A stretch of DNA of 64,000 bases from a virus: the IMG/VR virus record IMGVR_UViG_3300048011_000525, positions 51,583 through 115,582 of that record. One strand, given 5' to 3'. The position numbers were made by a program, and so were the translations under genes. Below the pieces are notes generated by a model. That model worked only from the letters and a program-made list of their open reading frames with translations. It made no database searches and had not been told where the DNA came from. This document shows, piece by piece, positions 6,649 through 23,804 of this stretch (its first letter is position 1; each line of letters opens with the position of its first letter).

Positions 6649-6667
6649 TTACATTTCTCCGTCATAG

Positions 6668-6687
6668 TATTTATCTTTCGATAAATA
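6668..6687. promoter_or_regulatory. Back-to-back late promoters (TAAATA on each strand)
   Basis: Inverted repeat tatttatc-tttc-gataaata between divergent neck genes. Confidence 0.7.
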
Positions 6688-6692
6688 TGTGT

Positions 6693-8060: not shown

Positions 8061-9574
8061 TGGCTGAACACTTTTATGACGGACAAATAAGAAAATATCT
8101 CGTACAGATGATGCGGTTGTTTAGTAATTTTAGTTACCAAACAGGCGACGGTACTGAAAAACAAGTACCTGTTTTGTATGGAGACTTAACACGCCAAGTA
8201 GGAAGTATTTTAAGAGACAATTCTGAAAATAAAATTCCAAGTGCTCCTCGCATGGCAGTTTATATTACAGGCTTAGAACTTGATAGAGATAGAACTAGTG
8301 ATGCTAGTTATGTAAACAAGCGTCATGTAAGAGAACGTGCTAAAGATTCAAACGGTGATTATACCGATGAACAAGGACGTCAATATACAGTTGAGCGTTT
8401 AATGCCTACACCATATAAACTAACTATAAATGTTGACATATGGAGTACAAATACAGATATGAAACTACAGATTATGGAGCAAATATTAATGCTGTTTAAT
8501 CCTAGTTTAGACATCCAAACCACAGACAACTATTTAGACTGGACAAGTTTAACAACAGTAATGCTAGACAGTGTAAACTTTAGCTCACGTTCAATTCCAG
8601 TTGGAGTCGATAGTGAAATTGATGTAGGACAAATGACATTTAGCACACCAATTTATATTAGTCCTCCTGCTAAAGTTAAACGTCTTGGTGTTGTTACTAA
8701 TATTGTTACTAGCATATTTGACGGTGACGGATATTATGACTTTGAAAAAATGCTTGAAGGTACTAACTTGTTTAGTATAGGCGGAGCAACTGCACCTTAT
8801 GAAAAGGGTAGCGAGCAAAACGAAGTTGTTGATACAGGTGCCATGCCCAATGACGGTGATGGTGTTCTTACTCCTAGAAAACAAATTACAAGAACTGTTA
8901 AACCTATTATTAAAAATCCATTACAACATCGCATACTGATACTTAATGGACAAATTCAGTTGCTTGATAACGGCTTACCTAGCAACACTGCATGGTCTGA
9001 GTATTTTGAAGAAATTCAAGGTACTTATAAGCCGGGGTTAAGCATAATGTATTTTAGAAAGCCGGACATAAGCGGACTAGTTGCAGGACGTATTACAATC
9101 AATCCATTAGACGAAACTAAACTGTCAATTGCTTGGGATAGAGATACATTGCCAAGCAATGATACAATACAAGGCCCTGCTCGTAATGCTAATCAATATT
9201 CAAGTGTAGATTATATTGTAGATCCGTTGCGTTATGATCCGCAATCAGATACTTCAAAAGCAGGAGTACGATTGCTTATACTTGGTGCAATAGGTGATGC
9301 AGATAATGTAGATGGTGCTGATGCTTGGAAAAATACTGACAACACAGATTTTGTAGCAGGTGATAATGACATTATCGAATATGATGGCGCTAATTGGCAT
9401 ATTGTATTTGATGCAAGCAAAGACTACCTTCCGTACAATGACGAAACTATTACAACCTTATACACTACAAACTTAAATACCGGTGTACAATACTACTGGG
9501 ATGGCGATCAGTGGTTATTAAGCGTAGACGGCGAATATGCCAAAGGTGACTGGGTAATTGAGCTAGACGGCTAA
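8060..9574 (+). CDS. Tail terminator/sheath stabiliser (gp15-like) with C-terminal extension
   Basis: HFYDGQIRKY, VPVLYG, PRMAV, MPTPY, QIMEQILMLFNP. Confidence 0.8.
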   Translation: MAEHFYDGQIRKYLVQMMRLFSNFSYQTGDGTEKQVPVLYGDLTRQVGSILRDNSENKIPSAPRMAVYITGLELDRDRTSDASYVNKRHVRERAKDSNGDYTDEQGRQYTVERLMPTPYKLTINVDIWSTNTDMKLQIMEQILMLFNPSLDIQTTDNYLDWTSLTTVMLDSVNFSSRSIPVGVDSEIDVGQMTFSTPIYISPPAKVKRLGVVTNIVTSIFDGDGYYDFEKMLEGTNLFSIGGATAPYEKGSEQNEVVDTGAMPNDGDGVLTPRKQITRTVKPIIKNPLQHRILILNGQIQLLDNGLPSNTAWSEYFEEIQGTYKPGLSIMYFRKPDISGLVAGRITINPLDETKLSIAWDRDTLPSNDTIQGPARNANQYSSVDYIVDPLRYDPQSDTSKAGVRLLILGAIGDADNVDGADAWKNTDNTDFVAGDNDIIEYDGANWHIVFDASKDYLPYNDETITTLYTTNLNTGVQYYWDGDQWLLSVDGEYAKGDWVIELDG

Positions 9575-9582
9575 TTACTAGT

Positions 9583-10020
9583 ATGAACAAGATAGTTTGC
9601 AGTGGTGCTCTCTTTTACGCACTCAATACAAAACGTTTTTTATTTTTACACAGAGCTGGCGGCAAGACTTCTGGCACTTGGGGACTTGTAGGTGGCGGCA
9701 ACGAAGAAGGTGAAACACCTTTTGAAGGACTTACACGTGAAATACAAGAAGAAGTAGGAAAACTACCTAAGTTTGTAAAAACAATACCTTTAGAAACGTT
9801 TGTATCAAATGATGAAAAGTTTAACTTTCACACATACCTTGTTGTAATAAAAGAAGAATTTTTACCTACACTAAATCATGAACACAACGGGTATGCTTGG
9901 ACTACATTTGGTAATTGGCCTAAAACCCTACACCAGGGATTGCGCAACACACTACAAAATAAAACTAATCTTACAAAGTTAGAAACTGTATTTCAAGTAA
10001 TAGACTTACTTGACAATTAA
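9583..10020 (+). CDS. Nudix hydrolase
   Basis: Nudix box GGGNEEGETPFEGLTREIQEEVG; LNHEH..YAW. Confidence 0.9.
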   Translation: MNKIVCSGALFYALNTKRFLFLHRAGGKTSGTWGLVGGGNEEGETPFEGLTREIQEEVGKLPKFVKTIPLETFVSNDEKFNFHTYLVVIKEEFLPTLNHEHNGYAWTTFGNWPKTLHQGLRNTLQNKTNLTKLETVFQVIDLLDN

Positions 10021-10038
10021 CTCAAAAGACTGTATAAT
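10010..10038 (+). promoter_or_regulatory. Perfect-consensus sigma70 promoter of the hldE-hldD operon
   Basis: TTGACA(10010-10015)-17nt-TATAAT(10033-10038); predicted +1 falls on the ATG at 10045. Confidence 0.85.
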
Positions 10039-10044
10039 ATGAGT

Positions 10045-11181
10045 ATGAAAGTTTTAGTTCTCGGTGACATCATTGTCGACAAATATATCTACGGTACATC
10101 AACACGCATTAGCCCAGAAGCGCCAGTGCCTGTTGTAACATATCAGCGTGAAGTTGAGACTGTAGGTGGTGCCGGACTTGTTTACGAAAATCTTAAAAGT
10201 CTAGGTGTAGATGTTACTCTGTTTGTAATGCCTGGAAAGCCAAGCGTTAAAACACGAGTTATATGTGACGGACATTATATAACACGCATCGACAACGATG
10301 TACACACAAACGGATTAGATGTATTAAAACGTGTATTAACTACCGACTTTACAGTATATGATTATGTTATTTTAAGTGATTACAATAAAGGTACACTAGA
10401 CGAAAGTATTGAAATAATCAAACACATTAATACATACGGATGTCGTATTATTGTTGATCCTAAAGAACACTCTAGTCACTATGAAGGTGCTTGGTTAGTA
10501 AAACCCAACGAAAAAGAATTTCAAGAATACTTTATCAACTGGCACGGTAACATTATTACAACTAGAGCAGATAAAAGCGTTGTTGCTAACATTGACAATG
10601 AAGTATTTGAAATAGATGTGGAGCCGGTTGAGGTATCGGATGTAACAGGAGCAGGAGATTGTTTCTTAGCAGCATTTGTATATGGTCTTACTAAAGGTTA
10701 TGATTACAAACATGCAATTGAACTAGCAGTTAAAGGCTCTACAGAAAGTGTTAAGCATGTAGGCACATACACGCTACAACAGCGCGATTTAGAAGAAAGA
10801 GTAGTCTTTACTAATGGAGTATTTGATATACTGCACAAGGGTCATTTTGAGCTCTTAAAAGAAGCTAAATTTCTCGGTGCTAAACTAATTGTAGGTATTA
10901 ATAGCGATGCTAGTGTAAAACGTCTTAAAGGCGAAACACGCCCAATTAATAATCAAATGAAGCGTATTAGTCAGTTAGAAATTTTACCGTGGGTAGATCA
11001 AGTAGTTGTATTTGATGAAGATACCCCATACGAATTAATTAAAAAAATTAAGCCGCATGTAATAGTTAAGGGCGGCGACTATACAGTAGAAACCGTAGTA
11101 GGACACGATTTAGCCGAGGTGCATCTTGTACCTACTGTTGAAGGCTACAGCACTACAGAAATTATAGAGGCAAGCAAATGA
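10045..11181 (+). CDS. hldE: Bifunctional heptose-7-phosphate kinase / heptose-1-phosphate adenylyltransferase
   Basis: VLGDIIVDKY, RISPEAPVPV, SDYNKG, DVTGAGD (PfkB) fused to FTNGVFDILHKGH, GINSDASVKRLKG..RP, KGGDY; start probably 10045 rather than 10039. Confidence 0.93.
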   Translation: MKVLVLGDIIVDKYIYGTSTRISPEAPVPVVTYQREVETVGGAGLVYENLKSLGVDVTLFVMPGKPSVKTRVICDGHYITRIDNDVHTNGLDVLKRVLTTDFTVYDYVILSDYNKGTLDESIEIIKHINTYGCRIIVDPKEHSSHYEGAWLVKPNEKEFQEYFINWHGNIITTRADKSVVANIDNEVFEIDVEPVEVSDVTGAGDCFLAAFVYGLTKGYDYKHAIELAVKGSTESVKHVGTYTLQQRDLEERVVFTNGVFDILHKGHFELLKEAKFLGAKLIVGINSDASVKRLKGETRPINNQMKRISQLEILPWVDQVVVFDEDTPYELIKKIKPHVIVKGGDYTVETVVGHDLAEVHLVPTVEGYSTTEIIEASK

Positions 11182-11996
11182 AAATTTTAATTACTGGCCA
11201 TAAAGGATTTATTGGACAAAATCTAACCCTGTTCTTACAAAACGAACACGAACTATTTGGATACGAATGGCAAGAAGATAGCTTACCAGAAGTTGAAGGT
11301 TTTGATTGGGTTATACATACTGGAGCGATTAGCAGCACTACAGAAACAGATGTAGATAAAGTAATGTTGCAAAATTACGAGTTTAGTAAATGGTTATATA
11401 ACGAATGTAATACTAAAGGTGTTAATTTGCAATATGCATCAAGTGCAAGTGTTTACGGAACAAATACAGAGTTTAGCGAAGATGCTCCTAAACAGCCACA
11501 GAGCCCTTATGCTTGGAGCAAGTATTTGTTTGATCGCTGGGTTTGGGGTTTAAGTTCTCATAATATTATTGTACAAGGTTTCCGTTACTTTAATGTATAC
11601 GGTCCATTTGAGGATCATAAAGGTAATCAGGCAAGTCCAGTTACTAAGTTTACTGAACAAGCAATTAAGACTGGTAGAATAAAACTATTTGAAAACAGTG
11701 ATAAGTACTTACGTGATTTTATATTTGTAGGCGATGTGTGCGAAGCACATAAACAATTGTTAGAAAATAAAACAGCAGGTCTGTATAATATAGGTACTGG
11801 TAACACAACTAGTTTTAAAGAAGTAGCAGAAGTAATTGCTAAAAAATATAATGCTGAAATTACAGAAATACCAATGCCAAAAAACTTAAAAGGACAATAT
11901 CAAGAATATACTTGTGCAGACACAAATAAATTAAGTACAGTAACAGATATTGATTTTGCAACAGTAAAGGAGTATGTAAATGAGTCAACCAACTAG
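11178..11996 (+). CDS. hldD: ADP-L-glycero-D-manno-heptose 6-epimerase
   Basis: TGHKGFIG, GAISSTTETD, YASSASVYG, YAWSK, RYFNVYG..EDHKG.QAS, YQEYTCAD. Confidence 0.9.
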   Translation: MKILITGHKGFIGQNLTLFLQNEHELFGYEWQEDSLPEVEGFDWVIHTGAISSTTETDVDKVMLQNYEFSKWLYNECNTKGVNLQYASSASVYGTNTEFSEDAPKQPQSPYAWSKYLFDRWVWGLSSHNIIVQGFRYFNVYGPFEDHKGNQASPVTKFTEQAIKTGRIKLFENSDKYLRDFIFVGDVCEAHKQLLENKTAGLYNIGTGNTTSFKEVAEVIAKKYNAEITEIPMPKNLKGQYQEYTCADTNKLSTVTDIDFATVKEYVNESTN

Positions 11997-12399
11997 AAAA
12001 ACAGGCGTAGATCAAAAAGGCTGGGGATACGAGATGATTTGGGCTACTAACGACAAATACTGTGGCAAGATTATGGCCTTTACTAGAGAAGGTGCAACAA
12101 CAAGTATGCACTTCCACAGAGAAAAAGACGAAACTTGGTTTGTTAATAACGGACGGTTTAAAGTGCGATATATTGATACATCTAATAGTATGTTGTACGA
12201 AAGAGATTTAAAAGAAGGTGATGTATGGCATAATCCGCCATTGCAGCCGCATCAATTAGTCTGTCTTTCTAAAGAAGGTAGTATTACAGAAGTAAGTACA
12301 CCCGACAGTGTTGAAGATAACTTCCGTATTGGCCCTGGAGACAGTCAAATAGCCGAAAAAACTCAAGACCAATTGCAAACTCAAACAACAGGAAAGTAA
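11980..12399 (+). CDS. Cupin, sugar(-phosphate) isomerase-like
   Basis: KGWGYEMIW, SMHFHREKDETW, P..PH, EVST..DN.R. Confidence 0.75.
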   Translation: MSQPTRKTGVDQKGWGYEMIWATNDKYCGKIMAFTREGATTSMHFHREKDETWFVNNGRFKVRYIDTSNSMLYERDLKEGDVWHNPPLQPHQLVCLSKEGSITEVSTPDSVEDNFRIGPGDSQIAEKTQDQLQTQTTGK

Positions 12400-12402
12400 C
12401 AA

Positions 12403-13026
12403 ATGACATTTGAAGAAAATGTTATAGAACTTCCATTCCTGTCAGAAGACGAATGTAAAGACATAGCAGAGTGGGCATTTGATTTTGAGCAGCAGCTTAT
12501 TAATGCAGGGTATGGCGATAACAAACCTTCACCAGAGCACTTTGATAATGTAACAACTTCAAATTATCAAAACTATAACTTTTTTAATTATTTTCCAGAA
12601 TTAGCTGATAGATTAGTAGAATGTTTGTTCCACGTAAACAAAGATTTAGAGTGGCCAATTATATGTCAAGCATGGATAAACATCTATAGAAAAGGTCAAG
12701 GAATAAATTGGCATAACCATCAAGGTCGAATGGGTAAAAGTTTTAGTTGTAATGTGTTTATTGCAGGCGATACTACTCCCGGAATAACATATAAACCGTT
12801 TGGTGAGAAAGGTATGGTACGAGAAAATAAAGTAGGATATTTACACTTGTTCCCTTGTGAACTATTTCATTATGTTCCGCCTATCGAAACAGACACTCCT
12901 AGAATTACATTAGGAATGACAGTGCATAGTAGCTCGGATATAAATATTAACATTATGAACCAATTAGCATTTAATAGTAAAATGCCTCAAGATTCAGTAA
13001 TACTTACTAAGGATCATTATGAGTAA
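12403..13026 (+). CDS. Putative 2OG-Fe(II) oxygenase
   Basis: WINIY..G....WHNH...LFPCELFHYV....RITL. Confidence 0.7.
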   Translation: MTFEENVIELPFLSEDECKDIAEWAFDFEQQLINAGYGDNKPSPEHFDNVTTSNYQNYNFFNYFPELADRLVECLFHVNKDLEWPIICQAWINIYRKGQGINWHNHQGRMGKSFSCNVFIAGDTTPGITYKPFGEKGMVRENKVGYLHLFPCELFHYVPPIETDTPRITLGMTVHSSSDININIMNQLAFNSKMPQDSVILTKDHYE

Positions 13027-13363
13027 AGAAATTCTACCAAAAGTTAGATGTAGTCATATATTGCTAAGTTATGACAAAGCAATTGAATCAACACATACTA
13101 GAGAGTTGTATTACGCAATATGGGACGCTAAACAAATAATTGCAGAGTTAAAAGGCGGTGGAGTTTCCTGGGCATCTGCTGTTAAAGAACACAGCGCATG
13201 TCCACATAGCTGGTATAGAGATGGTGATTTAGGATGGTTTGATCTAAATGATGGAGTTGTACCGGAACTATATCTTTCAGTCAGAGCAGCGCCAAAAGAT
13301 CAATTATTAGAAGAACCGATACAAACTCCGTATGGTATTCATATCATAGTACGAACTGGTTAG
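13019..13363 (+). CDS. Parvulin (PpiC-type) peptidyl-prolyl isomerase
   Basis: VRCSHILL, KEHSACP, DGDLGWF, PIQTPYGIHII. Confidence 0.88.
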   Translation: MSKEILPKVRCSHILLSYDKAIESTHTRELYYAIWDAKQIIAELKGGGVSWASAVKEHSACPHSWYRDGDLGWFDLNDGVVPELYLSVRAAPKDQLLEEPIQTPYGIHIIVRTG

Positions 13364-13695
13364 TCGTCTAATTCGCCGTCAATTGTAAAGGTTGTTAATT
13401 TCCCTACAAGTTCTTCATTGTCTTTATTACGATAACTTCTTACACCGTTATGGGTATTAGGGTCATCTGCTAGACGCTCTTTTTCTATAAGCTCTTCTTC
13501 AGTTTGTGCAGCTTCTAGCTGAATTTCTACAATTTCACAACCTTTGTTTGGGTGATTTTCGTCAATCCATTTCTGAGCGTTTTCTCTTACTACAAACTTT
13601 CTAACTTCTTCATAGCCGTCGCCGTCTGGATCCCAAGTATGCCAAATTTTGACATTTGAATGCTGCGGGTGTGGTTTCTTAATTGCAAATGGCAT
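13360..13695 (-). CDS. Hypothetical protein
   Basis: 111 aa ORF with GAGGA SD; last gene of the minus-strand operon. Confidence 0.65.
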   Translation of the reverse strand: MPFAIKKPHPQHSNVKIWHTWDPDGDGYEEVRKFVVRENAQKWIDENHPNKGCEIVEIQLEAAQTEEELIEKERLADDPNTHNGVRSYRNKDNEELVGKLTTFTIDGELDD

Positions 13696-13705
13696 TTTTT
13701 ATCTC

Positions 13706-14263
13706 CTATATATTTTCTGCAAATTCTTGCAGTGAATCAAAAACGTATGTTGTACGCTTAATGCTTTTATATGTATATTTATCTAAGTCTCTTTCTGTTT
13801 GCTCTCCATAACCTGTTCTCACTAGTACAGGTCGAGCTCCTACTTTTGATGCTGCTTTCAAGTCTTTCATCTTATCACCTACATAAAAACTATTTTTCCA
13901 ATTTAAACCAGAAATCTGTTGTTGACTCATCTTAAACATACCAGTATTTGGTTTGGCATACAAATCTTTCTTATTACTGCTTTCGCTGTAATAAATCCCG
14001 TCAATATCAGTACACCCGGCTTGACCAAGTAAGTTTAACATATGTTCGTGTATATTGTCAACATCATCGGCTGTCATTATACCTTTTTCTATTCCGCCTT
14101 GATTAGTAATAATAACAATTCTGTAACCTTTTCTTCTTAGTTCTGCCATAGCTTCCAAACTGCCTGGAATAGGCTCAAAGTCCTTAGGATGCGTAACATA
14201 TGTACCTAAGTCTCTATTAATTACTCCGTCTCTGTCCAAACCTATAAAGATTTCTTTACTCAT
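13706..14263 (-). CDS. gmhB: D,D-heptose 1,7-bisphosphate phosphatase (HAD IIIA)
   Basis: LDRDGVIN, ITNQGGI, KPNTGM, VGDK..DL.AA, LVRTGYG. Confidence 0.88.
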   Translation of the reverse strand: MSKEIFIGLDRDGVINRDLGTYVTHPKDFEPIPGSLEAMAELRRKGYRIVIITNQGGIEKGIMTADDVDNIHEHMLNLLGQAGCTDIDGIYYSESSNKKDLYAKPNTGMFKMSQQQISGLNWKNSFYVGDKMKDLKAASKVGARPVLVRTGYGEQTERDLDKYTYKSIKRTTYVFDSLQEFAENI

Positions 14264-14837
14264 CGTATGTGTACCAGCCAGTGATAATATATTTGTAGCC
14301 TTTATAAATTGGATTACCTCTATGCGGATATATAAAGTTAGTAGGAAAAAATACTACTTTGCCTTGTTCTGGTTTAAGTTTTACACCTTGGTATAAGAAT
14401 TCAGTTTCGCCGCCTTCTTCAATATCGTTCAAGTAAAGCATATAATTAATAACTCTAGTGCTACTGCTTTGGTCAGATGCCTCTGCATGCCAAGCGTGAT
14501 AGCCTTCGTGTGGGCCTGTTCTTTGAAGGCTCATTCCTTTCGGGCTATGTTGTGCTCCGTGCTTTAACATAGAATATTTTTCAACATACTGATTTAAATA
14601 TAGATCATTAATTTTTTCATAAAAATGATCGCAAAGATTGTAGTCGTAGTGATATACTTTTTGAGTATGTGCCCAGTCAAACACAATTCGGTTATCTGTT
14701 ACAAATCCGTGTCCTCTATTATTAGGCTTAACAACATCTCTGCGAGCCATTACTTCAAAATGCTTAATAATTTCTTCGCAATACTCTGGTTCAAATGCGT
14801 TAGGATATTCTTCAATTCCTGAATAAGTGTTAGTCAT
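14256..14837 (-). CDS. 2OG-Fe(II) oxygenase, prolyl-4-hydroxylase-like
   Basis: GYHAWHAE, YLNDIEEGGETEF, FP....HRG, KYIITGW. Confidence 0.88.
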   Translation of the reverse strand: MTNTYSGIEEYPNAFEPEYCEEIIKHFEVMARRDVVKPNNRGHGFVTDNRIVFDWAHTQKVYHYDYNLCDHFYEKINDLYLNQYVEKYSMLKHGAQHSPKGMSLQRTGPHEGYHAWHAEASDQSSSTRVINYMLYLNDIEEGGETEFLYQGVKLKPEQGKVVFFPTNFIYPHRGNPIYKGYKYIITGWYTYDE

Positions 14838-15643
14838 TTGTTCTCCTTTAAAAACGGTATGTAATCTTTTGCGATGAGACCGTGTATATAGTAATTATAG
14901 TGTTCGCCGTCTAAAGTTTCGCAATCAAGACTTTTATCGGTTTTATGTTGTAAAAAGTTTATTGCATCAACTTTTGAAAATGTAGTTTGTGTCAAATTAG
15001 TATAAAATCCATCAACACTATTTGGTATAAAACATCTATCATTAATGTTCCAGACATACAATGGTATGTCTTTATCTCGACATAGCATGTCCATAAATGT
15101 TATATCTTTGATATAATCTTGTTGCTCTAAATGCGTTTGACTATAGTGATACATTCTTAAATACATATAAGACAATCGCCTTACATCTGGCTCTGCTTCA
15201 AACGGAATAGCATTTATGTAAGGAAATGCTTTATAATCAAAAGGTTCTGGTTTTAAATACTGTTCTAAGTATGTTTTATTTTGACACAGTCCTAAACTAT
15301 ATCGAGTTAGCTCATCTGTTTGCAAATCATTTTCTATAAAAAAATCTAACGGCAATATTTCTTTTTCATTTAGTGTTGGATTAATGGCTACTGGAAATCT
15401 ACTCCAGTAAGTAGACTGTACAAATACTTCTTCAATGTCATCGTGTTGCTTTAGTGCATGTGCTAAAAAGTTAGGATATGCTCTATTAGCAGTTCCGCCG
15501 CTTGCCATTACTATTACAGATTTATTGTTTTCCTTGCCATATATTTCAGCATAATTATTATCTTGCCAAATTTTTGCACCTTCTGTTTTATGACCATAAT
15601 ACCCCATTGTATGACTACAACCGATAAAAAGTGTTTTACCCAT
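14834..15643 (-). CDS. SGNH/GDSL-like hydrolase or acyltransferase (putative)
   Basis: FIGCSHT (block I-like), GGTAN, C-terminal DGEH. Confidence 0.5.
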   Translation of the reverse strand: MGKTLFIGCSHTMGYYGHKTEGAKIWQDNNYAEIYGKENNKSVIVMASGGTANRAYPNFLAHALKQHDDIEEVFVQSTYWSRFPVAINPTLNEKEILPLDFFIENDLQTDELTRYSLGLCQNKTYLEQYLKPEPFDYKAFPYINAIPFEAEPDVRRLSYMYLRMYHYSQTHLEQQDYIKDITFMDMLCRDKDIPLYVWNINDRCFIPNSVDGFYTNLTQTTFSKVDAINFLQHKTDKSLDCETLDGEHYNYYIHGLIAKDYIPFLKENK

Positions 15644-16187
15644 TCCAGGTTACCTCGAAGTCAAATACCATTACTCTACGTTCGTCTATTGTAGGATACG
15701 CTCCGTGCCAAATTTGAGAATCCATAATTAAAAGTTTTCCTTGTTTTGGTTGCCACCATTCAACATGTGTCTCTCCAAGTTTATCTTGTAATATGGCATA
15801 AAATGCGCCTTCGTCATTTGGCTGATCTTCTATGTCGTCAAAATATAATACTGCGGTACATCCTGTGTTACCCTTTGCATGATTATGCAACCCTTTCCAT
15901 CCACCAGGATAATATTTAATGCTCCAAGTTTGTATATGCTGTTGTAGCTTGCATAAAACGTTGCCGTCTTGTAATACACTATTTGTTTTTTCTATAATAA
16001 AGTCGGCAATTCCTTTAGTTTCAGCAAGTGTGTGCGGAATTTGGTATCCGTTAACTGTAGTACTTTTTCCTGGCTCTACCAAGTTAGGATGATCAGCGTC
16101 AAATAAATGTTCATATTCTTTCCACATTGGTGCGTGTGTTTCTACAATCCATTGATTATTTGCAATATATAATATATCATCCATCAT
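15636..16187 (-). CDS. Putative 2OG-Fe(II) oxygenase
   Basis: WSIKY..GG...LHNH, AVLYF, PKQGKLLI....WHG, RRVMVF. Confidence 0.75.
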   Translation of the reverse strand: MMDDILYIANNQWIVETHAPMWKEYEHLFDADHPNLVEPGKSTTVNGYQIPHTLAETKGIADFIIEKTNSVLQDGNVLCKLQQHIQTWSIKYYPGGWKGLHNHAKGNTGCTAVLYFDDIEDQPNDEGAFYAILQDKLGETHVEWWQPKQGKLLIMDSQIWHGAYPTIDERRVMVFDFEVTWNG

Positions 16188-16782
16188 TTTGTGCCGGTGT
16201 TATTACAAAGTTTGCTGCAATACTTGCTCTTAATTTATCTGACTTATTAGGTAAGACATAATGAGAAATCCAGCTAGGGAATAAAATTAATGTTCCCCGC
16301 TCCATTTGAGGAGTAATGTGCTGATAGTTGTATGCATTAAAAATTCTATCTAGTCCAGAACCCCTAACCATTTGAAAGTTAGGACATTCAAATACAATTT
16401 GTCCGCCGGCATCCTCTTCATTGGGATATTCTAACAAATATATTAGACTTAGTCCTCTTCCTGGAAATGCATGGTCATGCGGTTCTTGATAATCAGTTTT
16501 ATTATATACGTTTAGCCAATGTTCATCGCACATGATATTATAAGAAACTTGAGGTTCTAACGATTCTAAAAAGCTATTTACATGTGGTTCAACAGTCTTA
16601 AAGAAAGAATCCCACGGCAATGAATCATTTTTGTTACTTCTAATACTAGTTTTAGCTTGCGCCATTGACCAGTCACTTTTCATAACCATTTCAGAGTCGT
16701 CAAAGTATGGTGCCCATTCTTTTAGCATTTCGTCGCAGTTGTCAAGTTTGGCTGAATAAAAGTGTGTTCCCCATATGTGCAT
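16177..16782 (-). CDS. Putative 2OG-Fe(II) oxygenase
   Basis: WLNVY...DYQEPHDH, GTLILFPSWISHYV.PN, RASIAAN. Confidence 0.82.
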   Translation of the reverse strand: MHIWGTHFYSAKLDNCDEMLKEWAPYFDDSEMVMKSDWSMAQAKTSIRSNKNDSLPWDSFFKTVEPHVNSFLESLEPQVSYNIMCDEHWLNVYNKTDYQEPHDHAFPGRGLSLIYLLEYPNEEDAGGQIVFECPNFQMVRGSGLDRIFNAYNYQHITPQMERGTLILFPSWISHYVLPNKSDKLRASIAANFVITPAQNDG

Positions 16783-17285
16783 TATATCATTCCTTGTATA
16801 GTCGATTCTGCATTAAAAAAGAATACTTGTGTTAGCCTTCCGGTTTCTGGAGAGTTACCAAATCCCGGGACCATGCTAGAGTGATTAATATTTCCTTTGT
16901 ATAATATCAGTCTATTATAAACATTACTAATAGTTGTAATTGGATTGTTATCTTCGTCGTATAGTGCAGTACCTGAATCTAACATTGCATTAGGAGTAAG
17001 GTATAATACTCCTGCCCAGTCGCAACCGTCTTTATGAATCCAGGTCTTGGCGCCTTCGTATACTAACTGAAAACAAAAACTGTCGTACACAAATTCTTTT
17101 ACTCTTACATTTAAAATTTCAGTAATTCGTTGTTGAAAAAATTGTTGATAGTTACCGTCTGCTGCATCGCTGCGCATACCTGGATATTCGCCTTCGTGTT
17201 CGTGAAACGGTAGTTGTATAACCTGTTCTCTTACTAGATCAGGATTAGGTAGAAAGTCGTCAATTATTACAGTAGTTGTATCCAT
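16782..17285 (-). CDS. Putative 2OG-Fe(II) oxygenase
   Basis: IIDDFLPNPD.VR, YPGMRS, WIHKD, AGVLYL, YNRLILY....HS, RLTQVFF. Confidence 0.78.
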   Translation of the reverse strand: MDTTTVIIDDFLPNPDLVREQVIQLPFHEHEGEYPGMRSDAADGNYQQFFQQRITEILNVRVKEFVYDSFCFQLVYEGAKTWIHKDGCDWAGVLYLTPNAMLDSGTALYDEDNNPITTISNVYNRLILYKGNINHSSMVPGFGNSPETGRLTQVFFFNAESTIQGMI

Positions 17286-17803
17286 TACATAAAATCCATA
17301 TAAATATTTCCAGAAATAGTTGTTCCTTCATTTCCGGGCCTAACAAAGTGTTCGATAAAACTAGGAAAGAATATAATATCTCCTTTTTTGCATTCAGGTC
17401 TAAAATCTAACGGAAACTCACTTACATTTGTTCCAAATTGATTTTGTACATCTTTAAATATTGGGCTCATAAATACGGTCTTTGAAGAATCAACTGTTTC
17501 GTATATTACAAAACTCCAACTTGATCTAGGATGAATGTGAATATCTTGCCAATCGTTTTTATCGTATTTGTTCCTCCAAATCTCACCAAATCTAGGATTA
17601 TTTCCAATTAAATCTGGTCCTAAATTTTTAGAAACAACTTCAATAAGGTATTCGTAAGTGGAATCGGGTATGTTGTGTTGCTGCCCTAATGTTGAATTCG
17701 TTTCACTTAGCCATATTTTTTCATACGGTGCTTCGCCAATATCTATTTTACTTAAATCCACGCTGTCTATAAAAAACGGTACATGAAACATATTGTACTT
17801 CAT
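17285..17803 (-). CDS. Putative 2OG-Fe(II) oxygenase
   Basis: WRNKY...DWQDIHIH, GDIIFFPSFIEHFV, TISGN. Confidence 0.78.
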   Translation of the reverse strand: MKYNMFHVPFFIDSVDLSKIDIGEAPYEKIWLSETNSTLGQQHNIPDSTYEYLIEVVSKNLGPDLIGNNPRFGEIWRNKYDKNDWQDIHIHPRSSWSFVIYETVDSSKTVFMSPIFKDVQNQFGTNVSEFPLDFRPECKKGDIIFFPSFIEHFVRPGNEGTTISGNIYMDFM

Positions 17804-17821
17804 TATTATGTCCTTTGTATA

Positions 17822-18457
17822 TTATTTAAAGGGTGTTGGCGGCAAAGGTACTGCTCGCATAGCCTTATAAACTAACGTAGCACGTAGTCCTTTATAGTTT
17901 TCATTAGGCGGAAGACCATGATGAGGAATATTTCCTTTAAACAAAAATATTCTTCCAGGTTTAGGGTAAACTTTTTCCCATTTGCCATTAAGTTTAATAA
18001 CTGTTTCGCCGGCCCACTCTTCTTTCCATTCTCGGTTTACGTAATAAATCCAACTAATACCGTTGTCGCACTGACAATCAGTATGTTCAATAGTATTGTG
18101 TATCCACTGTTGTCCATTAACAAGTATTTCACCAACTTCAAGTTCAAATGGTATTAGTTGTGCAACGGCATTGTACACCATGTTCCATGCACTATCATGT
18201 GCATTAGGACTATTAGGAGGATAAATTTGTTGCTTAAATGCAGGAACTTCTGGCCAGTTTGGATCTGCTCCTATATCGTACTTAGGGTCTTCGGGATAGT
18301 TGCTAGTATGGCCATAAGTCCAGCTATACGACTTAAATACTAAGTCATGTATATGCTCTATCATCCAGTTAGGAAAAAGATCATCAATAACAATCATTTG
18401 ATCTTTTGCTAAATCATAATCGTATAAGTTGTCTTTTATTTCGCCGTTTACAATCAT
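17822..18457 (-). CDS. Putative 2OG-Fe(II) oxygenase
   Basis: HTD, YYVNREW...WAGET, PKPGRIFLF.G.IPH, R.TLVYK. Confidence 0.82.
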   Translation of the reverse strand: MIVNGEIKDNLYDYDLAKDQMIVIDDLFPNWMIEHIHDLVFKSYSWTYGHTSNYPEDPKYDIGADPNWPEVPAFKQQIYPPNSPNAHDSAWNMVYNAVAQLIPFELEVGEILVNGQQWIHNTIEHTDCQCDNGISWIYYVNREWKEEWAGETVIKLNGKWEKVYPKPGRIFLFKGNIPHHGLPPNENYKGLRATLVYKAMRAVPLPPTPFK

Positions 18458-20274
18458 GTATTTTCAACTTTCAATATCTTTTTGTGCTCTGGCAAATATA
18501 CATACTCAATGTCGCTATTTGCAAGAGTGCGCAATGCATCGTCTAGTGTTTCAACTAATGGCTCACCGCCTAAGTTAAAACTAGTATTAAAAATAATCGG
18601 AACGCCTGTCTGATTATAGAACTCGTTAATTACTGCATAATAATTTTCATTTTGTTCTTCTTTAACTGTCTGAATACGACAAGTACCGTCTACATGGATA
18701 ATACTAGGAATCTTTTCAGCAACACCTTCTTGACAATTCATAGCATACATCATGTGTGGGGATTCTTCTAATCCTCGCATATCAAACCATTCGTGTGCGT
18801 GTTCTGCGAGAATTGATCCTGCAAACGGACGGAAGTATTCTCTACGTTTTACCTGGTTAACAAAGTCTTTTCCGTCTTCCATTGTTGGGTCAAACATCAA
18901 ACTTCTGTTACCTAATGCTCTAGGACCTGCTTCCGATCTTCCTTGAAACATTGCAACAATGTTTCGGTCTCGAATTAATGATACAACATCTTTATGATCT
19001 GCTTCACTAATAGTTGCATTATACTTTTTAGCAACTTCATTAATATCGTCAGTTGTATATTCTTTTGGCGGACCTAAATATAAACTTTCTCCAAATGGTT
19101 TAGTTTCGCTATCTCTTGACGATTGATGCCAGGCGAGCATTGCTGCTCCAAGTGCTGTGCCTGCATCGGAACTAATAGGTTCTACATATAAATTAATTCC
19201 ATACTTATTAAGCTCGTCGAGATAATGATAGTTTGCTACACAGTTAAGCCCGTATCCGCCTGACAAAACAATATTCTTTTTGCCAGTCATTTCGTGTGCT
19301 TTTAAAATTAATTTTAAAATTTGCGCTTGACTTTCTTGCTGCAACGCATATGCTAAGTCTCTTCTGTTTTCTAATTTAGTTACATCATTGAGAGATCCGT
19401 CTTCATTATGGTATTCAGCAGGGGTATACAAATACTCATAAAACCCTTCGTTAATTATAGAACTGTTTGGATATGTAGGTATTACTAAATGCCTATTGGC
19501 TACAGTCCAATCGCCGCCTGCTTCAACATACAATGGTGGAATTTTATCATTAGGTTTACCGTATGGTGAAAGTCCCATTGTTTTACCAGCTTCAATTGCC
19601 TGAAAGCCGCAATAGTTAGTTACTGCTTCGTACACTTTGGTTATGCCTGCTCCGTCGTCAATAACACACTCGTGTGTACCGTATTCGTCAAATCTATCAC
19701 TAGGCATGTCTTTAGTATATGACGATCTAAATGGACCGTTACCTCCAAGATGTTTCCACAATGTTTTTATATCAAATGGATAGTCACAATCAAATATTGT
19801 TTCTAGTTCAAATAACATTTCTGTTTTTCCTGGTTCTATTTCAGCAGGAATAAATGTGCCGGCTCCGTCTACAATAACTGCGGCTGCTGAATCAAATCCC
19901 GAACGATAAAACGCACACGCTGCATGTAGTTTGTGATGTACATGTGCTAAGTCAACTACCTGAGGGTGATTATAAATATCAATTTTAGGGCTATTATCAA
20001 TTAATCCAAGTTTCCGTGCAAGGCCAGTATACACATCGTCGCCAGTAAAGTCAACACGTCCGGCTGTTTCAGCAAGTGGTTGCGTATGTGCAATAACAAG
20101 ATAATCTAATTTATCAGTGTATTCTAAAATCTTAACCATTCCTGCAAAAGGGCCACCGTCGTATTTTTGACGACTTAGTCTTTCTTCTTCAACTGAAAAT
20201 ACAATTTCGCCGTCCTTAAGAAGACATACTGCACCGTTATGTCCTCGTGTTATTGCTGCTATCCATTTAGCCAT
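18454..20274 (-). CDS. O-carbamoyltransferase (NodU/CmcH/TobZ family)
   Basis: EEERLSRQKY, HHKLHAA.AFY.SGF, VDGAG, GKTMGL.PYG, SGG..LNC.AN, D.G.ALGAA, E.GPRALGNRS, VKRRE.FRPFA, HVDGTCRIQTV, NTSFN..GEP. Confidence 0.95.
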   Translation of the reverse strand: MAKWIAAITRGHNGAVCLLKDGEIVFSVEEERLSRQKYDGGPFAGMVKILEYTDKLDYLVIAHTQPLAETAGRVDFTGDDVYTGLARKLGLIDNSPKIDIYNHPQVVDLAHVHHKLHAACAFYRSGFDSAAAVIVDGAGTFIPAEIEPGKTEMLFELETIFDCDYPFDIKTLWKHLGGNGPFRSSYTKDMPSDRFDEYGTHECVIDDGAGITKVYEAVTNYCGFQAIEAGKTMGLSPYGKPNDKIPPLYVEAGGDWTVANRHLVIPTYPNSSIINEGFYEYLYTPAEYHNEDGSLNDVTKLENRRDLAYALQQESQAQILKLILKAHEMTGKKNIVLSGGYGLNCVANYHYLDELNKYGINLYVEPISSDAGTALGAAMLAWHQSSRDSETKPFGESLYLGPPKEYTTDDINEVAKKYNATISEADHKDVVSLIRDRNIVAMFQGRSEAGPRALGNRSLMFDPTMEDGKDFVNQVKRREYFRPFAGSILAEHAHEWFDMRGLEESPHMMYAMNCQEGVAEKIPSIIHVDGTCRIQTVKEEQNENYYAVINEFYNQTGVPIIFNTSFNLGGEPLVETLDDALRTLANSDIEYVYLPEHKKILKVENT

Positions 20275-20275
20275 A

Positions 20276-21319
20276 TTATTTTTCTCCGATGCGTTTAATA
20301 GTAGTGTTTCCAGGAATAAGTTTAGGCTTATTTGATTTTTTAGCTTCTAAGGCTGGAGACTTTAATGGTTGAGGTTTATTTGTAGGTCCAAGACGTGTTC
20401 TTACACTTTTTAAAATACTATCAATTTGTTTTTGATCAAGTTCCATAACTTCGTCATTTAATCGATCTTGTTCTTCTTCCATCGTAATTCTAATCGGTGA
20501 ATAGACACGTTTCCCTTCGCCTACATCAATTATATCAAAGTTTGTATCATCTACATAAGAAATATTAACAGGATAAGTTGATCCAGTCACGATAGTAGCT
20601 GTCTTTCCTAGTGCTTTTACAATATGTTGACCTACACTATCACAACCTAAAAAGTGATCTGCTACGTCAATAATTCCGGCCCAAACACGCATATCTGGAA
20701 TTTCTGGCTGTGCAACTGGAAACTTTGTATTAGGATTGTCATCTACTACTACAGGATGTTCACTCATAATAATGACACCGTATTCTTTTTTAAGTTCATT
20801 AATGATATCAATGATATTATTTAATTGGAAACTTCTTGAGGTTGTGTCTACTAAAAACTCTCCAATACTTTCTACAGTCCTTCCAAAAGGCTGTACTACC
20901 AAAACTTTGTCAAATCCAGTTACTGTTTTAACTTCTTCAACAACATTAGCCGCACTTACAATTTCTTGTTTATTTAAAGCTAAAGTTGGCTTATCTAAAG
21001 ATCTTACGCCTTTATTGTTGATTTCAATATCAAACGCTTGTGACAAGCTACACTGTTGATTGTAGTATTCCCAAATTCTATAAGGTTCTGGACTTATGCA
21101 GTTTCGATCTTTAATTTTTTCTTCAAACAAACCTTTATGCCAATTATCGTATGCTCGCTTAGATAGTGTCGGATGGCCTTTAAAAAAGTCAGTTCCTCCT
21201 TCACATACAATAATAAAATCGTTATTTGGATTTTCCTTTTCAAATAATTCAAATGCAGGAATACTGGCAATTACTCTCCCTGCTCCGCCGTTAATAAAAA
21301 ATGCTGTTGATCTTGACAA
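20276..21319 (-). CDS. GT-B glycosyltransferase, GT9 (heptosyltransferase)-like; TTG start
   Basis: N-term GGAGRVIASIPA, VVQPFG, C-term DHFLGCDSVGQHIVKALGK resembling the GT9 DSG..H.A.A motif; AGGAG SD before TTG. Confidence 0.65.
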   Translation of the reverse strand: MSRSTAFFINGGAGRVIASIPAFELFEKENPNNDFIIVCEGGTDFFKGHPTLSKRAYDNWHKGLFEEKIKDRNCISPEPYRIWEYYNQQCSLSQAFDIEINNKGVRSLDKPTLALNKQEIVSAANVVEEVKTVTGFDKVLVVQPFGRTVESIGEFLVDTTSRSFQLNNIIDIINELKKEYGVIIMSEHPVVVDDNPNTKFPVAQPEIPDMRVWAGIIDVADHFLGCDSVGQHIVKALGKTATIVTGSTYPVNISYVDDTNFDIIDVGEGKRVYSPIRITMEEEQDRLNDEVMELDQKQIDSILKSVRTRLGPTNKPQPLKSPALEAKKSNKPKLIPGNTTIKRIGEK

Positions 21320-21341
21320 AATGTTACTCCTATATAGTATT

Positions 21342-21378
21342 ATTATAGCACCATATTACATCGATTGCAAGATATTTA
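21342..21378 (-). promoter_or_regulatory. Dual promoter (sigma70 plus late box) of the modification operon
   Basis: Minus strand TTGCAA(21365-70)-17nt-TATAAT(21342-47) with TGn extension; TAAATA at 21373-78. Confidence 0.72.
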
Positions 21379-21391
21379 TTGAGGTACAGAC

Positions 21392-21419
21392 AAAAAATGC
21401 GCCATTGTGGCGCATTTTT
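21392..21419 (-). terminator. Intrinsic terminator between the structural block and the enzyme operon
   Basis: AAAAATGCGCCA-ttg-TGGCGCATTTTT inverted repeat. Confidence 0.85.
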
Positions 21420-21442: not shown

Positions 21443-22156
21443 TTACATTACAATTATATCACCAGTTAGCGGATCTTCTTCACTTGCAGGATCAATTGGT
21501 TCCATATTATAAGCAATCCAAGCTGGTATACCTGCGTCTTGCATTGTAGCGGGCCAATCTCTTAAACGCTGTCTATAATCTAACCATTTAGCTTTTAGGT
21601 CAGTAGGCATATCGTCAACTACTTCGCTATCACTGTTGGATAGTAACTGCATTCGTTTAGCTCGTACATCATCCCAATCCGGAAGTCTGTCTCCTGACCC
21701 CATAACTGCCCAAGGTATTGTCCTTGCTTGTACTGTTATGTTGTCATCTTCGTCTACATGTATTGAGTCGGGTTCGTATACGTCAAGTGGACGTAACGGT
21801 GTTTGATACGTAAATGTATTGTGTCCTTCCATATCCATGCCGCCCGGAGGATGCGTGAAGCTAGTATAATCTTCGTCCATCTCGTCTAATATAGGACCTT
21901 TCAGTTCGCATATTAACGGATTAGATATACAATCTACTTCTACATATCTACAACCTTTCGGAACTGGTCTGCCATCTGCCTTTTCAAGCTCTGTTACAGG
22001 TCCTAAATGTTCTTTACCTGTATCGTTTTCGATAATCAAGTATAACTTATCCGGACCGTCGTATACGCAAGTTCTTGTATGACCATCAGTAAAACTGTGA
22101 TCAACCATATATTCGTTAGGTAATTTCATTGTCCATTCAAATTCTACCATTGCCAT
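21443..22156 (-). CDS. Tail fibre assembly chaperone-like protein
   Basis: C-terminal WDDVRAKRMQLLSNSD...W.DYRQRLRDWP motif; own TATAAATA at 22178-22185. Confidence 0.72.
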   Translation of the reverse strand: MAMVEFEWTMKLPNEYMVDHSFTDGHTRTCVYDGPDKLYLIIENDTGKEHLGPVTELEKADGRPVPKGCRYVEVDCISNPLICELKGPILDEMDEDYTSFTHPPGGMDMEGHNTFTYQTPLRPLDVYEPDSIHVDEDDNITVQARTIPWAVMGSGDRLPDWDDVRAKRMQLLSNSDSEVVDDMPTDLKAKWLDYRQRLRDWPATMQDAGIPAWIAYNMEPIDPASEEDPLTGDIIVM

Positions 22157-22189: not shown

Positions 22190-23002
22190 TTAAAAAAATG
22201 TTACTTTAACAACGCCACCGCCGCCGGTGCCACCTTGCCCGCAACAACGTCCACAATAGTTCGATGTTGCACTTTGTCCTCCTGCGCCGTAAGGAACAAT
22301 CCAACAGCCGCATCTAATCCAACAATAGTTGGAGTTTTGTTCGTACCAGTTGTCACTTAAATTTGGTGCACCTGTTGAGTGGCCGTTGTGTTTCCAACAG
22401 TGACATGCGTTACCTGGATAAAAGTATCCAGACTGTGCTTGGAAGTTACCACCGTGTGTATAACTTGCCCAATCACCGCTTGCGCTTGTTCCTACGCAGC
22501 CTGGACGCACACAGTAAGGCATAGATGAATAACACATGTCTGTCCACGAGCTATTAGTACACCCTCTTTGTCCGCCACATGCACAAAGGTTACTTAAATT
22601 ATATCCATTAACATAAGTAGTACACCCGTTACAGCCATTACACTCACGACTTAGGCATCTGTATACACCAGCTGCACATACACTGTATGTACATCCTGAA
22701 TTAGTAGTTACACTTTTTGAAGTATATGCACCGCCGCCTGCTGGGCCAGTATGTTGGCATCGTTGACAACTACATGCACCTGCACCATTGCCACCTGCGC
22801 CCCATAGTTCCCAATTTAAACGTCTAGTACAGCTAGGTACAGTCCAGTTACAACAACAACCTGAACTACATCTACAACTAATTCCGTAAAACCATTTAAC
22901 ACAAAAGTTGTCTCTTACACCGCCTGTCAAATTATTATAATCAACAACACTATCAGTTAACTGATCTGAGCGCACTTTTTTGTAATCTGTATAATTTGCC
23001 AT
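22190..23002 (-). CDS. Cys/Gly-rich virion-associated protein, paralog 3
   Basis: WTVP, ELWGAGGNG, terminal GGTGGGGVVKVTF; many Cys. Confidence 0.7.
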   Translation of the reverse strand: MANYTDYKKVRSDQLTDSVVDYNNLTGGVRDNFCVKWFYGISCRCSSGCCCNWTVPSCTRRLNWELWGAGGNGAGACSCQRCQHTGPAGGGAYTSKSVTTNSGCTYSVCAAGVYRCLSRECNGCNGCTTYVNGYNLSNLCACGGQRGCTNSSWTDMCYSSMPYCVRPGCVGTSASGDWASYTHGGNFQAQSGYFYPGNACHCWKHNGHSTGAPNLSDNWYEQNSNYCWIRCGCWIVPYGAGGQSATSNYCGRCCGQGGTGGGGVVKVTFF

Positions 23003-23011
23003 CTTTAATCC

Positions 23012-23794: not shown

Positions 23795-23804
23795 TTAATG
23801 TTCC

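Follow-up and report, generated by a model that had tools for sequence, protein, structure and literature searches.

We consider it likely that a block of genes in a viral DNA from the IMG/VR collection encodes a system for the transfer of heptose, probably of carbamoyl-heptose. The block lies at 9583-21319 of a 64,000-nucleotide stretch (hereafter the window) that forms the last 64 kb, positions 51,583 to 115,582, of the 115,582-base virus record IMGVR_UViG_3300048011_000525, a record estimated to be 33% complete. Its core is made up of fibre-tip proteins, a tail-fibre-assembly-chaperone-like gene, a GT9-like transferase gene, a carbamoyltransferase gene and the genes of heptose supply; the first four are invariant in 80 related viral loci, and HldD is encoded on the same contig. 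Because an ADP-heptose branch, a GT9-fold transferase and an O-carbamoyltransferase are inherited together, a heptose or carbamoyl-heptose product is the best reading of the cassette. Donor, product and acceptor are what we infer from these genes and their setting, and we give about even chances to the narrower proposal that the phage's own fibre-tip proteins receive carbamoyl-heptose while still in the cytoplasm.

An earlier note on this DNA had proposed a heptosylation system between the neck genes and the fibre genes. That placement is borne out, with every gene it named present where it had been put. On one side lie a gp13-like neck gene (5665-6648, minus strand) and, on the plus strand, the genes for a virion protein and a gp15-like sheath stabiliser (6630-9574); on the other lie chaperone, tip and fibre genes on the minus strand. 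The closest cultured relatives of the GT9-like protein are found in T4-like cyanomyoviruses, at identities of 63% in S-SSM7 and S-SSM6a, 57-58% in Sf-FS3, 52-53% in S-CAM1 and S-CAM3, and 44% in P-SSM2 and P-SSM5. A megablast of the region against phage records, a set that may omit close relatives, returned no match. The synteny sample used throughout consists of 80 related viral loci (given L numbers where they must be told apart) that were scanned with the proteins of the window; loci without the adjoining chaperone-like or carbamoyltransferase gene are mostly truncated by contig ends, and heptose genes were counted when they lay within 10 kb of the transferase gene.

The GT9-like transferase

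The GT9-like protein (20276-21319, minus strand; 347 aa, TTG start; T4-GC 302) escapes the sequence libraries. It matches no Pfam family, PF01075 included, at E <= 0.01 and no glycosyltransferase model of NCBIfam, and a profile of 29 homologues retrieves no GT9 chain from the PDB at E <= 10. It falls in PHROG 8954 (phrog_8954), which carries no assigned function; GC302 is labelled 'hypothetical protein' in all records of cultured phages, and none of the 120 best relatives listed has a functional name, in a family that comprises 3,724 proteins when clustered at 90% and 406 representatives when clustered at 50%. Identification from sequence libraries was therefore given up, since Pfam, NCBIfam, PHROG names and the PDB profile all came back empty; it was the fold search together with hhalign that resolved the family.

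An AlphaFold model built from 29 homologues (mean pLDDT 77, pTM 0.78) was compared with known structures. Foldseek filled its top 21 ranks with GT9 entries (3tov, WaaC, TibC and WaaF) at E-values from 1e-8 to 2e-6, and VIA-align gave Z-scores of 20.0 for 3tov (274 residues aligned, root-mean-square deviation 4.0), 17.6 for WaaF, 16.8 for WaaC and 16.3 for TibC, with the UDP-GlcNAc 2-epimerases forming the next fold tier at Z 12.4. As both programs matched GT9 structures first, the earlier call of a GT9-like protein, which was to be checked against WaaC, WaaF and TibC, holds. The donor site tells the same story: hhalign of a profile of 56 diverse members with E. coli WaaC pairs residues 206-254 with WaaC 240-288, setting D227 on D261 and H232 on H266, and a global hhalign with WaaC and WaaF gives Prob 81% and E 1.3e-6. 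Across the 56 sequences, which share 26-50% identity, D227 and H232 are invariant and S228, G246 and T248 are present in at least 90%, and the D261...H266...G-P-T donor signature of WaaC is kept in the family.

The catalytic centre looks different. In the global hhalign, which is a sequence-profile alignment and not a structural superposition, Arg15 of a GGAGR motif falls on D13 of WaaC (SSMGD) and of WaaF (SWVGD). At least 90% of the family share Arg15, and distant homologues from Aeromonas phage HJ05 and Vibrio phage D505 have it too. In TibC, Asp110 is the candidate catalytic base and the D110A mutant is inactive (PMC4358343). An alternative base could come from another of the conserved acidic residues, namely E78 in a PEPY motif, E119 or the invariant D158.

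Thus, the comparison with WaaC and WaaF (2h1h, 1psw) extends to the GT-B fold and the D-x-G-x-x-H...G-x-T donor signature; it ends at PF01075, at Arg15 in place of Asp13, at an acidic acceptor domain and at a host that, according to a review (PMC4515613), has no Kdo/heptose core (Kdo, 3-deoxy-D-manno-oct-2-ulosonic acid). The earlier note had also pointed to TibC and AAH (the BAHT family; 4rap, 4rb4), whose cytoplasmic, ADP-heptose-dependent O-heptosylation of an adhesin encoded by the adjacent gene would serve as a working analogy. Here, too, the catalytic fold agrees. BAHT enzymes are characterised by an N-terminal extension, a beta-hairpin thumb, a Cys iron finger and a dodecameric assembly (PMC4358343). 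The model aligns only to TibC 92-393, so the extension is absent; the 56 aligned sequences share no Cys at an invariant or nearly invariant position, which leaves no conserved iron finger; the equivalent of Asp110 is not conserved; and the candidate substrates are Gly/Cys-rich tips instead of beta-helical Ser-rich repeats. The GT9-like label is therefore supported for fold and donor site, and the family stands apart from canonical GT9 and BAHT enzymes.

The carbamoyltransferase

The next gene downstream encodes a TobZ/NodU-type O-carbamoyltransferase (18454-20274, minus strand; T4-GC 303), a position that it holds in 75 of the 80 loci. The identification made in the earlier note is firm, as both domains exceed their Pfam gathering scores (Carbam_trans_N 87.4 vs 24, Carbam_trans_C 196.6 vs 27). 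Relatives in the PDB, in a range from 1e-43 to 1e-59, include TobZ (E 5e-45), NovN, GdmN and 7xb6 (2.5e-59); the score against the NodU equivalog lies under its cut-off. A precedent for the arrangement exists in Pseudomonas, where 7-O-carbamoyl-heptose is found in the inner core of the lipopolysaccharide (LPS) and the putative carbamoyltransferase WapO is encoded beside WaaC and WaaF (PMC8005017); the window shares with that setting a NodU/TobZ-family carbamoyltransferase beside a heptosyltransferase-like gene.

TobZ, NovN and GdmN carbamoylate small molecules, and one alternative is that the acceptor is a small soluble molecule or natural product, or else phage DNA carrying a heptosylated hydroxymethyl-pyrimidine. 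Phage clusters that place heptose on 5-hydroxymethylcytosine have been reconstituted (bioRxiv 10.1101/2023.12.21.572611); like the present cassette they combine heptose activation (HAD/kinase plus cytidylyltransferase) with a GT-B transferase, and the island of S-SSM7 also holds a halogenase and a methyltransferase. Those clusters, however, contain T4 beta-GT-like transferases, a methyltransferase and TET-type enzymes, none of which is seen here. The DNA glycosyltransferases described so far are T4 beta-GT-like, not GT9-like; none of the seven 2-oxoglutarate (2OG) oxygenases of the cassette matches TET/JBP, their matches being of the prolyl-4-hydroxylase (P4H) type, Oxy_5 and DUF6445; and a DNA or small-molecule acceptor would leave unexplained why the gene has a fixed place behind fibre-tip genes in three phage lineages. 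We regard this alternative as very improbable. DNA hypermodification was dropped as a candidate when Pfam scans of the cassette revealed no TET/JBP-type oxygenase and no beta-GT-like transferase.

ADP-heptose supply and the cupin

Three separate genes each have their best match to a different step of ADP-heptose synthesis, with catalytic motifs intact, as the names hldE, hldD and gmhB in the earlier note had implied. The first encodes a fused HldE-like kinase/adenylyltransferase (10039-11181, plus strand) with PfkB and cytidylyltransferase-like domains and the motifs GAGD and HxGH; its best NCBIfam model is NF008454 at 285 bits (cut-off 521), followed by TIGR02198 at 179 (345) and rfaE_dom_II, TIGR02199, at 168 (181.5). 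The second is a short-form HldD-like ADP-heptose 6-epimerase of 272 aa (11178-11996, plus strand; TIGR02197 241 bits against a cut-off of 274.6) in which GxxGxxG and YxxxK are present, and which is 42-45% identical to the cyanophage epimerases of T4-GC 308. The third, on the opposite strand, is a GmhB-like heptose-1,7-bisphosphate 7-phosphatase of the HAD-IIIA type (13706-14263, minus strand; NF006506 147 bits, cut-off 178) with DxDGV and GDxxxD.

Of the ADP-heptose pathway claimed in the earlier note, the HldE/HldD/GmhB branch is probable and the GmhA step is missing: no SIS-type GmhA (PF13580) is encoded in the 115,582-base contig, about 33% of the genome. The cultured relatives do not fill this gap. 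Their T4-GC 306 protein of about 110 aa is annotated 'phosphoheptose isomerase' in P-SSM2 (gp311, L086:17021-17365), S-SSM7 (gp130, L001:22708-23043) and S-CAM1 (L087:15916-16239); a SIS domain is absent from the S-SSM7 and Sf-FS3 copies that were checked, and the copies of P-SSM2, S-SSM7 and S-CAM1 match EcbF/BcbF and HAD-IIIA phosphatases. They look like mis-named miniature phosphatases equivalent to GmhB. Since the GC306 'isomerases' are HAD phosphatases, the isomerase step is unaccounted for in all these phages.

One candidate for it is a small metal-binding cupin with a Cupin_2 match (11980-12399, plus strand; T4-GC 307), which accompanies HldD and HldE wherever the contigs of the 80 loci reach. 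In S-SSM7 the cupin is gp131, annotated there as 'nucleotidyltransferase'. Its His-His-Glu-His metal site (H44/H46/E51/H91) is invariant. The PDB profile yields a flat list of relatives, with D-lyxose, L-ribose and mannose-6-P isomerases and the CapF epimerase cupin, and VIA-align gives Z 14.7 for CapF, 14.1 for KdgF, 14.0 for CENP-C and 11-12 for lyxose isomerase, PGI and PMI; neither the PDB profile nor Foldseek nor a wide VIA-align comparison discriminates between isomerase and epimerase. The cupin is a candidate substitute for GmhA or a candidate sugar-nucleotide epimerase, an idea that can be tested.

That the phage should bring its own supply would be explained by its host, because cyanobacterial LPS is described in a review as being without heptose and Kdo (PMC4515613). 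Among the 80 loci, GmhB is found near the transferase gene in 42, HldE in 30, and HldD and the cupin in 27 each; all cultured cyanophages with the GT9-like gene carry HldD and HldE. Five contigs were probed further (L015, L018, L023, L055 and L057). Four of them had no HldD within 10 kb, a range in which L055 had GmhB. Three of these four encode HldD at another place on the contig, in one case as a weak SDR match (23% identity, E 4e-12); the fourth contig, 23 kb in length, has no HldD.

Linkage to the fibre tip

The gene directly upstream of the transferase in 74 of the 80 loci encodes a tail-fibre-assembly-chaperone-like protein (21443-22156, minus strand; PF16778 35.8 bits; phrog_9740, 4912 and 8716). 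It is preceded in the window by three paralogous fibre-tip proteins of the Cys/Gly-rich Gly_rich_2 type (22190-24581, minus strand; 258-270 aa), with 10-12% Cys, 16% Gly and isoelectric points (pI) of 8.4-8.6, which make them the sole basic proteins in the neighbourhood. Such a Cys content is unusual for virion proteins, and the cysteines might form disulfides or metal sites or be sites of modification; motifs in these proteins include GCCCNWTVP, CWIxCGCW and CCGQGGTGGGG. Tip paralogues were detected in 61 of the 80 loci, and loci that BLAST had missed (L020, L024, S-CAM1 and P-SSM2) have at the same position an open reading frame (ORF) of 287-356 aa that is rich in Cys (8-14%) and Gly (14-18%); a Cys/Gly-rich ORF lies upstream of the transferase gene in every relative inspected. 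The Cys/Gly-rich proteins are gp304 and gp306 in P-SSM2 and gp114-116 in S-SSM7. Conversely, all nine records with Gly_rich_2-type proteins in a phage genome collection also carry a GT9-like gene. The co-occurrence of cassette and fibre genes that the earlier note had suggested examining is thus seen for the GT9-like and carbamoyltransferase genes with the chaperone and tip genes; the oxygenases, the parvulin and the SGNH-like gene are sporadic.

The linkage reaches beyond the cyanophages. Aeromonas phage HJ05 and a set of Vibrio phages that includes D505 carry distant homologues (25-28% identity, same PHROG), which are shorter, at 245-307 aa, and share the motifs GGLGR, PEPY and CDSxGxH. In HJ05 the homologue directly follows a tail-fibre-like protein (L084:7300-8979), and in D505 it directly precedes a 1756-aa tail protein (L085:9729-14999), after which comes a chaperone-like gene. 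These tail neighbours contain 17 and 15 Cys per 150 aa, respectively, against 0-4 in the surrounding proteins. No homology between the cyanophage tips and the Cys-rich tail segments of HJ05 and D505 is detectable, so the parallel is compositional only. No sugar or heptose genes lie near the homologue in HJ05 or D505. The Vibrio and Aeromonas hosts presumably synthesise ADP-heptose to build their LPS, which would explain the lack of supply genes in these phages.

The same neighbourhood invites a reading without catalysis, in which the GT9-like protein has been re-purposed and helps to fold or assemble the Cys-rich tips, and the sugar genes serve something else. A GT9 fold can be used in this way: the second-best matches of the model are the chains 9grx_1, 7wff_a and 7f9o_6 of the chloroplast NDH-photosystem I (NDH-PSI) supercomplex (Z 17.9, 17.9 and 17.0), which we take to be PnsB1, a GT9-fold structural subunit of chloroplast NDH. 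Arg in place of the catalytic Asp throughout most of the family, down to the distant Vibrio and Aeromonas copies, fits such a role, as do the constant adjacency to the chaperone-like gene and the shorter homologues that have no sugar genes nearby. It is harder to reconcile with a nucleotide-sugar signature that keeps D227 and H232 invariant over such sequence distances, or with an O-carbamoyltransferase gene as strict companion, joined in cyanophages by genes of ADP-heptose supply; the missing sugar genes lose weight if the Vibrio and Aeromonas hosts make ADP-heptose themselves. Overall, a non-catalytic role seems to us improbable.

Transcription of the cassette

The heptose supply and the transferase have different promoters. 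A sigma-70-type promoter, TTGACA-17-TATAAT (10010-10038, plus strand), agrees with the consensus at 12 of 12 positions and precedes hldE, its -35 box lying inside the final NUDIX codons. An ATG at 10045 follows the -10 box by 7 nt and has no Shine-Dalgarno sequence, and ten related loci (in the range L019-L032) keep both the promoter and its distance from the ATG. The hldE mRNA is probably leaderless, with its true start at 10045, which corresponds to Met3 (MKVLVLGD...).

The structural genes in the window have the late box NATAAATAC about 27-35 nt before their start codons, and the chaperone-like gene has a late box of its own, TATAAATAC, at -29. The promoter region of the GT9-like operon (21342-21380, minus strand) contains the late box AATAAATA (21373-21380), whose core ATAAATA is the same in all 12 relatives that were aligned. 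Between this box and the start of the GT9-like gene lies a sigma-70-like TTGCAA-17-TATAAT (21342-21370; TTGCAA-17-TG-TATAAT with its TG), present only in the nearest relatives. Exclusively early expression of the transferase was rejected on these grounds, the sigma-70-like box being limited to the closest relatives and the late box invariant. Reading of the sequence further suggests an intrinsic-terminator-like hairpin, AAAAATGCGCC-ACAAT-GGCGCATTTTT (21392-21419, minus strand), as a divider between the chaperone-like gene and the GT9-like operon; L003, L004 and L021, the three closest relatives, likewise have a GC-rich hairpin ahead of the late box. From these signals we infer that the sugar supply would be expressed from an early-type promoter and the transferase together with the late genes.

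Proposed mechanism and acceptor

In the mechanism that we propose, the phage would build its own ADP-heptose by means of the HldE-like, GmhB-like and HldD-like enzymes, with the isomerisation of sedoheptulose-7-P presumably carried out by the cupin or by a host enzyme. The consensus sigma-70 promoter would drive this supply operon. Late in infection, the GT9-fold transferase and the TobZ/NodU-type O-carbamoyltransferase would be made from their own late promoter; the transferase would place heptose on the acceptor, and the carbamoyltransferase would carbamoylate a hydroxyl of the sugar, the same chemistry that is known from 7-O-carbamoyl-heptose in the inner core of Pseudomonas LPS. Most likely, the acceptor would be the Cys/Gly-rich tips, or else some other protein of the fibre, at a stage before assembly.

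The earlier note had named two acceptors, the phage's own Ser/Thr-rich fibres and the host LPS. The fibre module is favoured, with the Cys/Gly-rich tips as likelier targets than Ser/Thr-rich fibres, and the host envelope is the rival. The reasons are synteny, the late box, charge, and the lack of export genes and membrane segments, all of them circumstantial. As to charge, the N-terminal (acceptor) domain of the GT9-like protein has a pI of 5.7 (family median 6.2), compared with 10.0 for E. coli WaaC and 9.7 for WaaF. As to export, the cassette proteins contain no membrane segment (maximum 19-residue hydropathy 1.23), and Pfam scans find no flippase, ligase or polymerase among the cassette genes.

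If the envelope were the target, the cassette would put heptose or carbamoyl-heptose on LPS or another surface glycan and thereby block superinfection or the loss of progeny to infected cells and debris. GT9 enzymes are classically heptosyltransferases of the LPS core, and carbamoylation of the WapO type occurs on core heptose; the hypothesis is a published one (PMC1079782), and Sullivan 2010 groups GC304, GC305, GC307 and GC308 with LPS genes. The early-type sigma-70 promoter of the hldE operon and the presence of heptose genes in S-SM2 and P-TIM68, where there is no fibre-linked transferase, would also suit this alternative. It would, however, have to do without the canonical acceptor if cyanobacterial LPS lacks heptose and Kdo, as is reported (PMC4515613), and the acidic acceptor domain is unlike that of WaaC and WaaF. 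Neither a membrane protein nor a flippase or ligase is encoded in the cassette; the conserved promoter element of the transferase is a late box; and in cyanophages, as in the unrelated phages of Vibrio and Aeromonas, the transferase gene is tied to the genes of fibre tip and chaperone. We therefore think it unlikely that the envelope is the target.

Several observations weigh against a heptose transfer system that acts on the fibre module. The GT9-like protein fails PF01075 and every sequence library, and with Arg15 at the position of the catalytic Asp of WaaC and TibC, its catalysis and its donor are predictions. The HldE-, HldD- and GmhB-like proteins all score under the NCBI equivalog cut-offs, GmhA is missing from the contig, and the supply operon has a promoter of the early type. 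S-SM2 and P-TIM68 carry heptose genes (HldD) without the GT9-like transferase, so heptose can serve another end in cyanophages. Moreover, the co-occurrence counts across loci are not phylogenetically independent, and the order of genes in hypervariable islands can reflect insertion hot spots instead of function. The most detailed version of our proposal, in which a virus-only GT9 branch with Arg for Asp heptosylates Cys-rich receptor-binding tips and a TobZ-like enzyme then carbamoylates the sugar, is tentative and somewhat less likely than not; the sugar could be O-linked or, in view of Arg15 and the many cysteines of the targets, S-linked to cysteine.

Variable cargo and neighbouring genes

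The remaining genes of the block are variable island cargo. A NUDIX hydrolase (9583-10020, plus strand; PF00293 50.8 bits) precedes hldE, an arrangement found in 13 of the 80 loci, and may do nucleotide-sugar housekeeping. Seven 2OG-fold proteins account for the seven oxygenases of the earlier note: an Oxy_5-type 2OG-Fe(II) oxygenase assigned by Pfam (12403-13026, plus strand), a prolyl-4-hydroxylase-like protein (14256-14837, minus strand; PF13640 54 bits) and five further genes of 2OG-oxygenase fold on the minus strand (15636-16187, 16177-16782, 16782-17285, 17285-17803 and 17822-18457). Five of the seven score above the Pfam cut-off (2OG-FeII_Oxy_3/_5), the product of 15636-16187 stays just under it (25.2 vs 27), and that of 16782-17285 belongs to DUF6445. 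They are only 19-23% identical to one another and hence not recent duplicates. The P4H-like protein matches the P4H of Bacillus anthracis (E 2e-9) and that of chlorella virus PBCV-1 (1e-3).

The parvulin was also correctly recognised; it is a single-domain peptidyl-prolyl isomerase (13019-13363, plus strand; PF00639, Rotamase, 39.6 vs 21.7). For the 269-aa SGNH-like protein (14834-15643, minus strand; GCSH...DxEH), the motifs hold up, GCSH/GDSH (block I) and DxEH (block V) being conserved in 12 homologues, while library support does not: Pfam, NCBIfam, PHROGs and the PDB profile give no match for the protein, and a Lipase_GDSL_2 match appears in one of the 12 homologues at E 0.058. A firm SGNH assignment was dropped because nothing beyond the motifs supports it. 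All neighbours of this protein in the atlas are viral.

Of the 80 loci, 7 have the parvulin and 12 the SGNH-like gene; the oxygenase genes, taken one by one, occur in 4-45 (12403-13026 in 4). With a distribution this sporadic, and nothing that ties oxygenases, SGNH-like protein or parvulin to the glycan, the earlier suggestion of an acylated or hydroxylated heptose is unsupported. Some cargo enzymes, one of them P4H-like, may act on the same proteins as the transferase. A collagen-type maturation kit (P4H, peptidyl-prolyl isomerase and glycosyltransferase) was considered and discarded, since none of 16 structural proteins has a run of at least five G-X-Y triplets.

Where the two convergent operons meet sits an ORF for a 111-aa acidic protein (13360-13695, minus strand), the last gene of the minus-strand operon, with homologues in 8 of the 80 loci and no match in Pfam, NCBIfam or PHROGs. 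Beyond the tip paralogues, the minus-strand genes include that of a 666-aa fibre protein and four giant ORFs of 4021, 2620, 1739 and 1894 aa (26956-39021, 39057-46919, 47743-52962 and 53127-58811). The giant ORFs are Thr/Asn-rich and free of collagen-like G-X-Y runs, each has an upstream NATAAATAC late box, and they presumably encode fibre or virion proteins.

Relation to known gene clusters and outlook

The cassette corresponds to the T4-GC 302-308 cluster of P-SSM2, S-SSM7, S-CAM1/3 and Sf-FS3, with the same genes in the same place and a shared order of fibre, Cys/Gly-rich, chaperone-like, GC302, GC303, kinase, nucleotidyltransferase, cupin and epimerase genes. It differs from that cluster in several respects. 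HldE is fused here (kinase then transferase), whereas in the cultured relatives kinase and nucleotidyltransferase are separate genes with their order reversed; the HAD phosphatase GC306 gives way to a canonical GmhB; the heptose genes are divided between two operons that converge; and interspersed among them are seven oxygenases, a parvulin and an SGNH-like gene. The cluster has been published as cyanophage LPS genes, 'functional or stuffer DNA' (Sullivan 2005 PMC1079782; Sullivan 2010 PMC3037559), and GC304, GC305, GC307 and GC308 are known to co-occur in P-SSM2, S-SM2 and S-SSM7 (Sullivan 2010 PMC3037559). Heptose enzymes are mentioned in a 2020 genome announcement (PMC7378029), and the RefSeq records of cultured relatives already name them. 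As far as we have searched, what is new compared with these sources is the GT9 fold of GC302, the exchange of Arg for Asp, the mis-annotation of GC306 and the link to Cys-rich tips across lineages.

If the proposal is correct, a gene set regarded since 2005-2010 as 'LPS genes, possibly stuffer DNA' would acquire a concrete job. Cyanophages would bring in an entire ADP-heptose pathway to make up for hosts that produce no heptose, possibly with a cupin in place of GmhA, and a cupin-type route into heptose synthesis might join a GT9 branch with an altered catalytic centre. The cultured carriers S-SSM7, S-CAM1, S-CAM3, P-SSM2 and Sf-FS3 make the question directly testable. Should the fibre tip be the target, abundant ocean phages would possess a glycosylated receptor-binding protein, and T4-like cyanophages as well as some Vibrio and Aeromonas phages would build glyco-adhesins; host range and adsorption between cyanophages and picocyanobacteria could then depend on a sugar coat, and not on protein sequence alone.

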